The translations under genes were made by a program, and so were the position numbers. Source: a plasmid. Taken from it: a stretch of 64,000 bases of DNA. Within the stretch, counting starts at the first letter, position 1, and each line of letters begins with the position of its first letter. The notes under the pieces are model-generated. The model worked only from the letters and a program-made list of their open reading frames with translations, was not told where the DNA came from and searched no databases. Location of the stretch: assembly GCF_053078305.1 (NCBI RefSeq), contig NZ_CP166875.1, one strand, 5' to 3'. Of this stretch, positions 52,571 to 64,000 are shown one piece after another.

Positions 52571-52922
52571 GGGAATTCTCCTCTCACATGCGGCCTCCAT
52601 CAGGCCGTGCCGCACCTGTAACCGGGCGACCGCATACGAATGCAGGTGCGGCCCCGAAGCCGCATCGCGTGGAGGAGGAACGACGAAACGTGACCGGGTG
52701 AGGAGGCTGGCGACAGCGACACACTTGCATCGGATGCAGCCCGGTTAACGTGCCGGCACGGCCTGGGTAACCAGGTATTTTATTCACAGAACCGTGCGCA
52801 AAATGCTGTGGATAAGCTGGACACAGCAGTCCACAGCAGGCATACAGCCACCCCCTCAGAGAATTGAGCGTTTTTTAGTCACAATAATGACATTTGACTG
52901 TGTGGATTCAGTTATTAGAATG

Positions 52923-52938
52923 CTGTATATACATACAG
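52923..52938. promoter_or_regulatory. LexA (SOS) box CTGTATATACATACAG upstream of impC
   Basis: Matches CTGT-N8-ACAG consensus; sits ~25 bp upstream of impC start. Confidence 0.65.
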
Positions 52939-52961
52939 CAATAGAAAAGGGAGATGAGAAC

Positions 52962-53210
52962 ATGATCCGCATTGAAATTCTTTTCGACCGCCAGAGCACA
53001 AAAAACCTCAAATCAGGCACACTTCAGGCGCTACAGAATGAAATCGAACAACGTCTGAAACCACACTACCCGGAAATCTGGCTGCGTATAGACCAGGGCA
53101 GCGCCCCGTCTGTATCTGTCACAGGAGCCCGCAACGACAAGGATAAAGAACGTATCCTGTCTCTGCTGGAAGAAATCTGGCAGGACGACAGCTGGCTGCC
53201 TGCAGCATGA
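52962..53210 (+). CDS. impC: ImpC (DinI-like)
   Basis: 82-aa DinI-like protein; ATG preceded by aaaagggaga. Confidence 0.75.
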   Translation: MIRIEILFDRQSTKNLKSGTLQALQNEIEQRLKPHYPEIWLRIDQGSAPSVSVTGARNDKDKERILSLLEEIWQDDSWLPAA

Positions 53211-53644
53211 GTACCGTTTATCACCGTCCGGCTGACCCTTCAGGCGATGACAGTTACGTGCGACCGTTGTTTGCCGATCGTTGCCAGGCCGGTTTTCCTT
53301 CGCCTGCCACTGATTATGCTGAGCAGGAACTGGATCTGAACAGCTATTGCATCAGCAGACCTGCAGCCACCTTCTTTCTGCGCGCCAGCGGTGAATCGAT
53401 GAACCAGGCTGGCGTGCAGAATGGTGATCTGCTGGTAGTGGACAGGGGCGAAAAACCACAACACGGGGACATCGTTATCGCTGAGATCGACGGTGAGTTC
53501 ACCGTCAAACGACTGCTGTTGCGCCCACGCCCGGCACTGGAGCCGGTTTCAGACAGCCCGGAATTCCGCACACTGTATCCGGAAAACATCTGTATTTTTG
53601 GTGTTGTCACTCACGTGATACACAGGACGCGGGAGTTACGCTGA
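53207..53644 (+). CDS. impA: ImpA (UmuD-like, LexA-type self-cleaving protein)
   Basis: 145 aa with S24 peptidase-like motifs GESM and KRL. Confidence 0.88.
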   Translation: MSTVYHRPADPSGDDSYVRPLFADRCQAGFPSPATDYAEQELDLNSYCISRPAATFFLRASGESMNQAGVQNGDLLVVDRGEKPQHGDIVIAEIDGEFTVKRLLLRPRPALEPVSDSPEFRTLYPENICIFGVVTHVIHRTRELR

Positions 53645-54918
53645 TGTTTGCACTGGCTGATATCAACAGTTTCTACGCCTCATGTGAAAAAGTTTTCCGC
53701 CCGGACCTTCGCAACGAACCGGTCATCGTACTCAGCAATAACGATGGCTGTGTGATCGCGCGCAGCCCGGAGGCAAAAGCCCTTGGCATCAGAATGGGGC
53801 AGCCCTTGTTTCAGGTGAGACAAATGCGCCTGGAGAAGAAAATACATGTATTTTCCAGCAATTATGCGCTGTACCACAGCATGAGCCAACGGGTCATGGC
53901 TGTTCTGGAGTCGCTTTCTCCCGCAGTTGAGCCCTACTCAATTGATGAAATGTTTATTGATTTGCGGGGGATAAATCATTGCATCTCTCCGGAGTTTTTT
54001 GGTCATCAGCTCAGGGAACAGGTAAAGAGCTGGACAGGACTCACCATGGGGGTGGGCATTGCGCCTACAAAAACGCTGGCTAAAAGTGCACAGTGGGCAA
54101 CAAAGCAATGGCCACAGTTTTCCGGTGTGGTCGCGCTGACGGCAGAAAACCGTAATCGGATCTTGAAGCTACTGGGACTGCAGCCAGTTGGTGAGGTCTG
54201 GGGAGTAGGACACAGACTGACGGAAAAGCTGAATGCGCTGGGTATTAACACAGCACTGCAGCTGGCGCAGGCTAACACGGCATTCATCCGGAAAAACTTC
54301 AGCGTCATTCTTGAGCGTACGGTACGCGAACTCAACGGCGAGTCCTGCATATCCCTGGAAGAAGCACCACCGGCAAAACAGCAGATTGTCTGTAGTCGCA
54401 GTTTTGGTGAACGAATCACAGACAAAGATGCCATGCACCAGGCTGTTGTTCAGTATGCAGAGCGGGCCGCAGAGAAACTACGTGGGGAGCGTCAGTATTG
54501 CCGGCAGGTGACGACATTTGTACGGACATCCCCCTTTGCAGTAAAAGAACCCTGTTACAGCAATGCCGCTGTGGAAAAGCTTCCATTGCCCACACAGGAC
54601 AGCCGGGACATTATTGCCGCCGCATGCAGAGCCTTAAACCATGTCTGGCGTGAAGGGTACCGCTATATGAAGGCAGGAGTCATGCTGGCTGATTTCACAC
54701 CATCGGGTATAGCGCAGCCGGGATTATTTGATGAAATCCAGCCCCGTAAAAACAGTGAAAAGTTAATGAAAACACTCGATGAACTGAACCAGTCGGGAAA
54801 AGGGAAAGTGTGGTTTGCGGGGCGAGGAACCGCCCCTGAATGGCAAATGAAACGGGAAATGTTGAGTCAGTGTTATACAACTAAATGGCGAGATATTCCC
54901 CTGGCCAGGCTGGGTTAG
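53644..54918 (+). CDS. impB: ImpB (UmuC-like Y-family polymerase subunit)
   Basis: 424 aa starting MFALADINSFYAS. Confidence 0.9.
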   Translation: MFALADINSFYASCEKVFRPDLRNEPVIVLSNNDGCVIARSPEAKALGIRMGQPLFQVRQMRLEKKIHVFSSNYALYHSMSQRVMAVLESLSPAVEPYSIDEMFIDLRGINHCISPEFFGHQLREQVKSWTGLTMGVGIAPTKTLAKSAQWATKQWPQFSGVVALTAENRNRILKLLGLQPVGEVWGVGHRLTEKLNALGINTALQLAQANTAFIRKNFSVILERTVRELNGESCISLEEAPPAKQQIVCSRSFGERITDKDAMHQAVVQYAERAAEKLRGERQYCRQVTTFVRTSPFAVKEPCYSNAAVEKLPLPTQDSRDIIAAACRALNHVWREGYRYMKAGVMLADFTPSGIAQPGLFDEIQPRKNSEKLMKTLDELNQSGKGKVWFAGRGTAPEWQMKREMLSQCYTTKWRDIPLARLG

Positions 54919-60121: not shown

Positions 60122-60379
60122 ATGGATGAAGAAAGGGTGTTTTCACTCAGCTATGAACAACTGACCCGGTTTGCGGAAAAACGCATCCGGGAATGCAATC
60201 TGGACAGCCAGGGCGCGATTTATCTCTGCGAGTCAGCCAAAGCCGGAGCCGTGCTGATCTTCTGGCATGAACTGGCCATAAATGGCTATGCCTCAATGAA
60301 TGCCATAAAGAGACAGGAGCTCATTGACGCCGACTTTCAGCGCCTCAGAAACCTCATCTGGCCGGAGAATGACAGGTAA
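60122..60379 (+). CDS. hypothetical protein
   Basis: 85-aa ORF whose stop overlaps next gene start. Confidence 0.4.
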   Translation: MDEERVFSLSYEQLTRFAEKRIRECNLDSQGAIYLCESAKAGAVLIFWHELAINGYASMNAIKRQELIDADFQRLRNLIWPENDR

Positions 60380-60969
60380 TGACCCAAAGCCGCCGACCGT
60401 CGCCACTGCAGCGGAGAGTGCTGATTGTGCTGGCTGCCCTTGATGAAAAACGGCCAGGCCCCGTGCTGACGCGGGACCTGGAACGGGTGCTGGAGCGAAG
60501 CGGGGAAGCCCCGGTCTACGGGCCAAACCTGCGCGCCTCCTGCCGTCGTCTGGAGGATGCCGGCTGGCTGCGTACCCTGCGCGCTCCGAACCTGCAGCTG
60601 GCAGTGGAGCTGACGGACGCCGGCCGGGCCGTGGCACAGCCTCTGCTGCTGGCAGAACAGGACCGCCTCCGGGCAGAACAGCGTGCGGCAGAAGTCGTCG
60701 TACTGCCGCTGATCCCGGCAGCAGGTCTGCCCGCAGACGGCACTTCTGCCACTGATCTGGCGGTGGAGCTGAACGGCATAACGTATCAGGCCTGCCGTGG
60801 GGATTTTGTGGTGCGTCTCGACGGCAGCACCTGTCTGCAGTTATGGAATAAAGAAGGCAGGGTGGTACGCCGGGAGGGCGATCCGCTGGAAGTGGCGCAG
60901 TGGCTGCAGGCCTGTCATGACGCAGGAATAGAAGTTCGCGTACAGATAAATGAAAGTGCCGCTCCGTAA
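60379..60969 (+). CDS. hypothetical GC-rich protein, possible winged-helix N-domain
   Basis: 196 aa; markedly GC-rich codon usage; overlap with upstream ORF. Confidence 0.45.
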   Translation: MTQSRRPSPLQRRVLIVLAALDEKRPGPVLTRDLERVLERSGEAPVYGPNLRASCRRLEDAGWLRTLRAPNLQLAVELTDAGRAVAQPLLLAEQDRLRAEQRAAEVVVLPLIPAAGLPADGTSATDLAVELNGITYQACRGDFVVRLDGSTCLQLWNKEGRVVRREGDPLEVAQWLQACHDAGIEVRVQINESAAP

Positions 60970-61336: not shown

Positions 61337-61464
61337 AGGAGCACCTCCGTTCCATGATGTAAACGTGACACAACTTATTGTTATTGATTATTATTATCAT
61401 GCTGTGGTTATGTTGTCATGCATCAGTACATTGACAAAAGTGCAAAAGAAAGGAAAACAGGCAG

Positions 61465-61800
61465 ATGAACAGAAAATATTATTTTAATAATATGTGGTGG
61501 GGATGGTTTATGGGTGGGTATACTCTGTATATGTCATGGGATTATGAGTTTAAATACAGATTGCTGTTCTGGTGTATTTCTCTCTGCGGAATGGTTTTGT
61601 ATCCGGTTGCCAGATGGTGTATTGAAAATACTGCCCTGAAATTTACCCGGCCTGATTTCTGGAACAGCGGTTTTTTTGCTGATACTCCCGGAAAAATGGG
61701 ATTACTTGCGGTTTATACGGGTACTGTTTTCATATTATCTCTTCCGTTAACTCTGATATATATTCTTTCTGTTATCATAAAAAGGCTGTCTGTAAGATAG
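61465..61800 (+). CDS. colicin Ia/Ib-type immunity protein
   Basis: 111-aa polytopic protein starting MNRKYYFNNMWWGW, recalled as colicin Ia immunity; convergent with colicin gene. Confidence 0.8.
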   Translation: MNRKYYFNNMWWGWFMGGYTLYMSWDYEFKYRLLFWCISLCGMVLYPVARWCIENTALKFTRPDFWNSGFFADTPGKMGLLAVYTGTVFILSLPLTLIYILSVIIKRLSVR

Positions 61801-61821
61801 ACAGCCTGTCTTATATATTAT

Positions 61822-63239
61822 TTAAATGCCCCAGAACTTATTCGCTTTTTCCACAAGCGTTTCATCAATCAGTGCACCGGTGACAGCCATCAGTAAACCA
61901 TACCCGATAATGCCTAAAGCGCTTCCGGTAAGAATACTGAAGACCAGAGCAACAAGAGCCGTTGCGGCATTACCTGCTATGATGGTTTCTGTTTTAACAA
62001 AAAAGGACGCCAGTTATCTGTCCGGGCAGCCTTACCAAACTCAGTGATCCAGTCAGCAAAATTTGTAATTTTTCCTGCATATCCCAGTCCGCGACTGAAC
62101 CTGTTCAGATTAGACGATATATCAGACAGCTTCACAGACTCAAGGGCTGCGGCAATCGCTGCACGATCTTTTGCATTAATTTTTTTGTTAATGTCAGTCC
62201 GGTACTTTTCATACGTTTTTAATGCCTCTTCAACATTACGTATTTTCTTCCCTTTAGCCTGCCCGGCCATCTCTCTGGCTAACTGCTCAGCTTTTGCACC
62301 ATATTTTTCTGAAACTGATTTCAGGAACTCTGTTGTGAAATTAATTGCGTCTTTCGTTGCCTTCAGTTCATCCTGTTTTCTTTTCTCTTCCGCTATCTTC
62401 TGATTGATGCCGGCAAGCTGGTTACGGGTATTCTCTTTTTCCTTCAACAGGGCATTAAGAGCGTCATTTGCATGCTTTTGCTCATTTGTTCTGGCACTGA
62501 GGTTATTTCTCACCGAATTTACCGCAGATTCAGCAGAGGTGATTTTATTTCTGGCATCAAGCAATCTTTGCCGTAACTTATCCCATTCAGTAACTTCAGC
62601 ATTATAAATTTTCTTGTCACCTTCCACATCCTCTGTCACCACCGGATTCCGGTCATTCAGAATATTGCGTTTATAGTCCAGACCGGAATGAGTCAGAAGA
62701 TAATTCAGGTTTGCACGGTTATCGATGACTGCGCTGGTTGTGATTTTTATCGTATCGGCAAATCTCGGATCACCGCTCACAACAATAGAATGATTTGTTG
62801 ATGAACGCCCCGGGAATTTTTCAGAGGAAACTATCGTTTTGCCGTCAGGCGTGTTTTTCTGTTGCGTCAGCTGTTGTTCAGCTCTGGTTAATGCATTACG
62901 GGCCGTGTTAAGCGATTCCGTCACCGAACTGAGTTTATTCCGGGCCTCTGAAATGGCCCTGTCATTCCGTGTCTGCTGCTCGAGCAGACGGGCCTGTTGT
63001 GCATCAAGAACGGCAAGGGCTGCCCCGCCCTTTTTTTCCAGCTCTGACAACCGCGTATTCAGAATACCTTTTCTGCGCTCGTATTCAGCAAGCATATCAG
63101 CGGCCTTCTTGTCTGCGTTCTGCGCATCCTTCTGCCGTTTTTCAGCCTGTTCAATTAACGACCTGGCCTCGCGGGGAGATATACGAAGAGAATCAGCATC
63201 AGCAAACAGCATCCGGCTCTCTGTATGTGTCAACGCCAC
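61822..63239 (-). pseudogene. cia: colicin Ia-like pore-forming colicin, 5'-truncated and frameshifted
   Basis: 420-aa ORF matches colicin Ia from HTESRMLFADADSL onward; final ~50 codons (channel domain, ending KFWGI) are in another frame after a T-run near 62005..62015; colicin Ia N-terminus (MSDPVRITNPG...) not found in any frame upstream. Confidence 0.75.
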
Positions 63240-64000
63240 GATGTTTGACCGTCTTATATCACTGGCGCTGACAACACGACAGAGTTATCAGGCATGGTGT
63301 CAATCAGTTCACAATTTTTCCATCGGAGCAGCCTACCACCGGTGATAACCTGACTTTGCCTGTAGTTTGTATACACAATCCCTGGCATTGAAACACGCAT
63401 ATGAGGTGTACTTCGGAATATGACCGTGCGCTCAGGAAGTACGGCAGATTCCGTCAAAAATTACCTGTAAAGACAGACTTCAGAAAAAACAGTGCTCGCC
63501 GCAGACCGGTGACCGGGCGAAGCCCGCGAACCGGCGAGGAAGCGCAATATATCTGTAGTTACAATGAGCAGGTACGCCCTGAAGCCTTCATAATCGGTAG
63601 TGTATGTTGTTTTTCTGGAATGATTTATCCACATATCTGGAGGTCCGATCCAGTAAACAGATCCATGAATGATCAACAAAGGATCCATTAAAGATCCCCA
63701 TATCGCTGCAAACCTTGTCACTCATGGGCCGGGACCACGATCACATAAGCTGTGGCATGTTACTGATAAACTGTAACATGCTAATGATAAGCTGTATTCA
63801 GTAATCCATATACTGAAGTAAGTTAATGACATAAACTATGGTCAGTACGTCAGACTCAGTTGTTAAATACAGGCTGCAGGTTTTTATTCAGTCAGTTAGC
63901 GGAGTTCTGACACACGATTTTCTGTTTATTCTTTTACTGTCCACAGGCTGGAGGCTTTCTGGAAAACGAAAATTCAGACATCAAAAAACTGTTCGGCGAG

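Follow-up and report, generated by a model that had tools for sequence, protein, structure and literature searches.

A stretch of 64,000 nucleotides from an E. coli virulence plasmid (the window) very probably holds what is left of a toxin-immunity module for colicin Ia (ColIa): a dead toxin gene beside an immunity gene that is intact. This confidence applies to the explanation as a whole, that is, to the joint, the frameshift, the dead toxin and the immunity that would remain. The elements named in a preliminary description of the locus are all present, within a few bases of where it had placed them.

The region is 100% identical to plasmid CP027674.1 of E. coli isolate 2014C-3003 from human stool, which is typed as IncFIA/IncFIB and is conjugative. 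Two further plasmids, pSTEC17_183-a and p_STEC1585_2, are nearly identical to the window over the colicin region. In RefSeq, the identical locus is recorded as a “frameshifted” colicin-like pore-forming pseudogene beside an intact immunity gene. A literature search on STEC plasmids for this specific Ia relic found no description of it.

The features of the locus are as follows (positions are those of the window).

61365-61394, plus strand: predicted sigma-70-like promoter (GTGACA, 18-nt spacer, TATTAT), from a consensus scan
61465-61800, plus strand: intact colicin Ia-type immunity gene (iia variant, 111 aa, WP_001080726.1), from the open reading frame, RefSeq and comparison with IMMI_ECOLX
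61783-61807, bidirectional: terminator-like hairpin between the convergent colicin and immunity genes, from a terminator scan
61822-63227, minus strand: 5'-truncated, frameshifted cia pseudogene, from tblastn, alignments, the match to PDB 1CII, Pfam and the RefSeq pseudogene
61825-61995, minus strand: out-of-frame C-terminal part of the channel domain with the hydrophobic hairpin (…VKTETIIAGNAA…KFWGI), from tblastn and translation
61999-62004, minus strand: T6 homopolymer, site of a 1-nt deletion, from alignment (closest intact allele T7, reference CTTTTT)
61977-63239, minus strand: longest remaining open reading frame, 420 codons from GTG at 63239 or 411 from ATG at 63212
63228-64000, no strand assigned: conserved flank upstream of IncFIB repB, in place of the cia 5' end and promoter, from PLSDB coverage and annotated relatives
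63228-63273, no strand assigned: 46-nt palindromic end of the IncFIB flank (TGTCAGCGCCA…TGGCGTTGACA), exactly joined to cia codon 159

The colicin Ia remnant

The extent of the remnant is given by a tblastn search of the window with a full-length colicin Ia. The query was taken from the IncI1 plasmid L003, whose immunity protein is exactly UniProt IMMI_ECOLX. Residues 159-570 align at 63227-61992, and residues 567-626 align in another frame at 62004-61825. The remnant thus represents residues 159-626 of the 626 residue long protein. Alignment of the DNA to plasmids with full-length cia places the breakpoint between 63228 and 63227. The similarity had first been described as beginning abruptly near 63225, at HTESRMLF; both methods put this edge at 63227, in residue 159. 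Alignment to the cia reference, which the preliminary description had named as a check, reveals both the breakpoint and the loss of one base from the T-run.

Structural and domain records agree with this assignment. The remnant matches PDB 1CII with E=7e-246, and precomputed Pfam data list PF11504 and PF01024 for its product. The Cir receptor-binding domain (PF11504) is present, since the colicin Ia fragment of PDB 2HDI matches remnant residues 127-231 (E=1.5e-61). A scan of the remnant against NCBIfam returned coiled-coil noise only.

The beginning of the gene is missing. The remnant has no N-terminal translocation region (TonB box) and no start codon, and neither a ribosome-binding site nor the SOS promoter precedes it. 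Across the whole 64-kb window, the best tblastn match to colicin Ia residues 1-158 has E=0.1, and blastn gives no match for the 820 nt with the cia promoter, the LexA operator, the ribosome-binding site and codons 1-158. An N-terminus, TonB box or SOS promoter was found nowhere in the window. In the colicin frame, stop codons appear about 20 codons upstream of the joint. The earlier observation that no colicin N-terminus is encoded upstream is borne out by these results. The region 63228-64000 also contains no match to a LexA box; this negative result is weak evidence, because the strict pattern also missed the known cia operator in the reference plasmid.

A joint between two plasmid backbones

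The DNA upstream of the remnant belongs to an IncFIB replicon. At least 80% of the segment 63228-64000 is covered by 2225 PLSDB plasmids, and in annotated relatives repB lies just past 64000 and is transcribed divergently. On the other side of the joint, the window is collinear from 63227 to 54882 with an IncI1 ColIa plasmid, at approximately 97% identity. The order in this block is cia', immunity gene, DUF6404, a 196-aa gene, an 85-aa gene, integrase, ParA, ParM and imp genes. Codon 159 of cia is the left edge of this IncI1-type backbone block, which spans at least 8.3 kb.

Because the left edge of the IncI1-type block is spliced onto the IncFIB replicon, the 5' truncation is one event and not gradual erosion. 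The picture of a colicin gene decaying at its 5' end, as first proposed, gives way here to a single sharp recombination joint between the IncFIB flank and the IncI1-type block.

The joint is blunt. There is neither microhomology nor an insertion sequence at 63228/63227, and truncation mediated by an insertion sequence was rejected for this joint on these grounds. In OZ039654 an IS1 element does lie nearby, but the cia 5' region is kept there and the record stands outside the truncated family.

At its palindromic end, the IncFIB flank has a boundary that stays constant while the partner changes, with at least four different partners among plasmids. In addition to cia codon 159, these include unrelated DNA in CP099011 and CP104847 and, in 64 plasmids (for example E. 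albertii pEA40_2), the DNA 3' of the 196-aa gene (window equivalent 60981). The palindromic end may be a hot spot of hairpin-anchored deletion or recombination. A search for repeats in the IncFIB flank found nothing relevant.

A second hairpin lies within the same flank. The preliminary description had pointed to a terminator-like hairpin with a T-run near 63480-63530 on the colicin strand. A GC-rich hairpin does exist on the minus strand at 63538-63495 (-31.2 kcal/mol, z = -2.2), and 5 nt further it is followed by a T6 run at 63489-63484. It was not flagged by the terminator scan. Because it is located inside an IncFIB flank common to more than 2200 plasmids, it is a feature of the replicon flank and not of the colicin locus. 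The idea of a colicin-related terminator was rejected on this account, and also because the hairpin is no canonical terminator.

The immunity gene

The immunity gene is convergent with the colicin gene and directly downstream of it. It is full length, as first described, spanning 61465-61800 and encoding 111 residues. The protein is identical to IMMI_ECOLX at 103 of 111 positions (8 substitutions). Its precomputed match to PF03526 is weak, and an NCBIfam scan of the protein gave no match. A Kyte-Doolittle profile places hydrophobic segments at about 31-50 and 77-106, and the stretch 8-25 is rich in aromatic residues.

The predicted promoter at 61365-61394 lies 70 nt upstream of the immunity start codon and is independent of the lost colicin promoter. 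The hairpin at 61783-61807 overlaps the 3' end of the immunity gene.

Origin and probable function of the locus

An IncI1-type block starting within cia, at codon 159, is bluntly joined to the end of the IncFIB replicon flank. It follows that the SOS promoter, the ribosome-binding site, the start codon and the N-terminal region with the TonB box were either never part of the remnant or were lost from it in a single step. A later deletion of 1 nt in a T7 run has cut the frame before the hydrophobic hairpin of the channel, and no colicin can be made.

The immunity gene, with its own predicted promoter, most likely still gives a small inner-membrane immunity protein. Immunity proteins of pore-forming colicins block incoming channel domains. 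The product of this gene would probably do so with Ia-type channel domains in the inner membrane, and the host of the plasmid would be a non-producing but immune “cheater” toward colicin Ia producers.

Sister plasmids

The joint is found in exactly six PLSDB plasmids and in two further complete RefSeq plasmids. The joint-bearing plasmids form two groups: group A is of the window type with T6, and group B carries the reference channel/immunity allele. The members of group B bear their own lesions in the remnant, in that two plasmids have a 5-bp deletion (equivalent to 62386-62382), a third has lost 40 bp and a fourth 1 bp; one member has no lesion. These deletions of 1, 5 and 40 bp are independent of the T6 event.

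Group A has nine lineage-specific substitutions, located from 63059 to 62198, and eight amino acids differ as a result. Against the background dN/dS of the colicin gene, 0.3-0.4, the probability that at least eight of nine are nonsynonymous is approximately 0.02. As judged from these sequences, the substitutions fit neutrality and a relaxed constraint on the remnant. In plasmid STEC648, the same allele is truncated a second time, and more deeply, at 62748, beside ehxD.

A separate loss of the toxin is seen in two plasmids (L004 3527-5763; L005 3527-5763), where a full-length variant cia was killed by another 1-nt deletion, equivalent to window position 62672; one of the two is 2012C-4221.

Is the immunity gene retained by selection?

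The locus had initially been interpreted as a case of retained orphan immunity. This is correct insofar as the colicin is dead and the immunity reading frame is intact, but no signal of selection is found. Four independent indel events in the 1406-nt remnant lead to an expectation of 0.96 events in the 336-nt immunity gene, and 0 were observed (P ~0.38). The indel counts fit neutrality, and the odds are roughly even between selective retention and too little time to decay.

According to the first of these explanations, the locus is a case of true orphan immunity: natural selection maintains the immunity gene because it protects the STEC host against colicin Ia producers without the cost of a toxin. 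The chances of this are only just short of even. The immunity reading frame is intact in seven of seven joint-bearing plasmids, as well as in STEC648, despite the four independent indels in the remnant. The exact immunity protein occurs on at least 1000 contigs, and the presence of a divergent channel/immunity patch in a dead gene could reflect a selected allele replacement. Excerpts of a recent article likewise argue that orphan immunity is maintained (PMC12546727).

Other observations weigh against selection. The indel contrast is not significant, since about one event would be expected in the immunity gene. Near-clonality of the lineage, seen in an identical 411-aa product in thousands of assemblies, implies that little time has passed. 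Moreover, two other toxin-dead lineages, the pO113-like plasmids and 2012C-4221, have lost immunity. Plasmid 2012C-4221 carries a full-length frameshifted variant cia together with an immunity gene interrupted by a W25stop change. The whole colicin-immunity module is deleted where the IncFIB end abuts the 196-aa gene.

According to the second explanation, the immunity gene is intact by chance. It would be a hitchhiker on a successful, recently expanded plasmid and would decay in the future. This is a plausible account, if one to be held tentatively. The neutral expectation fits the indel counts, the decay of immunity after toxin death in the pO113-like and 2012C-4221 lineages is what it would lead one to expect, and neither the channel part nor the immunity gene has any lineage-specific substitutions. 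Against it, the joint is shared by two lineages that are 1.4-3% apart. This suggests that the truncation is not very recent, yet both lineages keep immunity. In addition, dN/dS between the immunity alleles is 0.19.

A divergent channel and immunity patch

The segment 62100-61507, approximately 600 bp long, matches a divergent Ia-like allele. It covers the last ~105 colicin codons and immunity codons 15-111. The divergent allele is full length and intact in, for example, NZ_CP148367.1. The intact full-length divergent colicin is present on approximately 20 plasmids, where its PGAP name is only “colicin-like pore-forming protein”. The allele has 7 amino acid changes in the channel domain, clustered at residues ~544-568, and 8 in the immunity protein. 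Between the immunity alleles dS is 0.18, compared with ~0.03 in the centre of the colicin gene.

The surroundings of the patch are of the reference type. This holds for the immunity promoter, the first 14 immunity codons and everything to the right, and the flanks of the patch and the joint are common to the sister plasmids bearing the reference allele. On this comparison of alleles, the patch looks like a gene-conversion tract. The immunity gene and the adjacent channel part have zero lineage-specific substitutions, which suggests that the patch is young or recently imported rather than constrained.

The divergent allele could represent a separate immunity specificity. A further step would be that gene conversion, under selection, exchanged the immunity specificity of the dead locus, and that the variant is a distinct, undescribed Ia-like immunity group. 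This is a speculative and rather unlikely reading. If it were true, orphan immunity loci would keep evolving as defensive genes after the death of the toxin.

The remaining reading frame of the toxin gene

The longest open reading frame left in the remnant ends in ...NWRPFLLKQKPS followed by a stop, downstream of the frameshift. Its 411-420 residues take in the coiled coil, the Cir-binding domain and the beginning of the channel domain. In principle, it could be expressed with a new role, such as that of a receptor-blocking decoy, or as a chimeric colicin with an N-terminus encoded upstream.

Such a role is very unlikely. A long reading frame does survive, and it is identical in thousands of assemblies, but clonality accounts for this identity. 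A consensus scan found no promoter-like site upstream of the remnant, and no Shine-Dalgarno sequence precedes the candidate starts. A new N-terminal domain encoded upstream was rejected, as the DNA there is non-coding IncFIB flank with in-frame stops. Finally, the lineage-specific changes are nearly all nonsynonymous, and the sister plasmids break the reading frame in several ways.

The frameshift in the T-run

The frameshift noted in the preliminary description is present, although its position near 62005-62015 was slightly off; the run is at 62004-61999. Translation past it reaches a stop codon (TAG) at 61979-61977. The last 57 codons of the channel domain are out of frame. The channel frame itself continues to KFWGI at 61825 and then to a stop codon (TAA) at 61824-61822, in agreement with the original reading of a channel domain cut off by the frameshift and ending in KFWGI. 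A complete in-frame channel domain (PF01024, including the hydrophobic hairpin) is not present. No colicin is possible, because the 5' end and promoter are gone and the frame is cut before the hydrophobic hairpin.

The T6 run is found in five independent complete plasmids, from the USA (two), Switzerland, a human in China and a sheep in China. The exact 411-aa frameshifted product is present on at least 1000 contigs; the index blocks that contain it number 2168 and cover assemblies from NCBI (including drafts), JGI, ENA and Logan. At each place from which this product was retrieved, the neighbourhood is the same, with Rep3, the remnant, the 111-aa immunity gene and DUF6404. Thus, the frameshift is real and fixed, and it is not a sequencing error.

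The caveat that a homopolymer sequencing error hides a channel domain that is truly in frame has next to no probability left, since, even though the site is a homopolymer and the source assembly of the window is probably long-read, T6 recurs in the five complete plasmids and, among draft and short-read assemblies, in the 2168 blocks, the product of a repaired T7 run was not found in a collection of 15 billion proteins with any of three start-codon choices, and T7 is read correctly in related full-length alleles.

Relation to known systems

The closest known system is the colicin Ia operon of IncI1 ColIa plasmids (cia/iia; CEIA_ECOLX, IMMI_ECOLX, PDB 1CII). Residues 159-626 of the remnant are 96-97% identical to it. 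The gene order is also the same, including the convergent immunity gene, the shared terminator, DUF6404, the 196-aa and 85-aa genes, the integrase, ParA/ParM and imp. The window differs from the operon in lacking residues 1-158, the LexA-box promoter and the ribosome-binding site, in the frameshift that takes the hydrophobic hairpin out of frame, and in the divergent allele, to which the final ~105 codons of the colicin gene and the greater part of the immunity gene belong.

A related relic is found in STEC plasmids of the pO113 type (NC_007365 family). These have the same backbone neighbours as the window (RepB, DUF6404 and the 196-aa gene) together with an Ia-type channel relic. Their relic is independent and deeper than that of the window, with 123 aa of the channel domain beside traT (L015 4161-5015; L021-L024). 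A frameshift has reduced their immunity gene to a 43-aa fragment, found in 168 index blocks, whereas that of the window is intact.

Another example for the loss of a toxin gene is provided by ColBM plasmids, in which Christenson and Gordon reportedly described in 2009 the loss of the colicin B activity gene. As in the window, the toxin decays and immunity is retained on large conjugative E. coli plasmids, but the colicin is a different one.

The general pattern, an orphan immunity gene beside a broken toxin, has already been described, and the present locus is one more, very widespread, example. Excerpts of a 2025 article in Nat Commun report orphan colicin immunity genes beside truncated toxins on E. 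coli plasmids, and the same heavily truncated toxin common to plasmids of different size and origin (PMC12546727). As far as these excerpts go, the cases resemble the window in having an immunity gene beside a heavily truncated toxin gene, and this particular Ia joint is not named among them. The excerpts argue for selective maintenance, whereas the data from the window are equivocal. Truncated cia remnants have also been noted in isolate surveys (PMC6723558).

Beyond correct annotation, the locus has little significance. Strains with this plasmid are non-producers of colicin Ia even if they are positive for a cia PCR or read-mapping marker. Carriers may still be immune to Ia-type colicins, a point of relevance where colicin Ia producers are proposed as agents against STEC. 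For the question of toxin loss versus immunity gain, the locus offers a widespread, datable joint and related lineages that have lost immunity as well. Because of this combination, the selection hypothesis is testable on thousands of public assemblies.

Neighbouring genes

Colicin B and colicin M operons, apparently intact, lie a few kb from the Ia relic in pSTEC17_183-a and p_STEC1585_2 (L001 5814-8701; L026 11129-14671). Although cba, cbi, cma and cmi are annotated as intact in these two relatives, they are absent from the window, whose plasmid has different DNA at that place.

The segment 54882-63227 is IncI1-type backbone inside an F-type/IncFIB STEC plasmid, with genes for an integrase, ParA, ParM, a stability protein and an impCAB-like Y-family polymerase. 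Within it, the 196-aa open reading frame at 60379-60969 has a GC content of 0.69, compared with ~0.42 around it, and a long antisense open reading frame. Its place beside DUF6404 is conserved in ColIa modules, and plasmids without colicin genes have the 196-aa gene too.

A perfect LexA-box-like palindrome, CTGTATATACATACAG, is located at 52923-52938, just upstream of the impC/impA/impB-like genes (52794-54918). Its sequence and position are consistent with an SOS-regulated mutagenesis operon.
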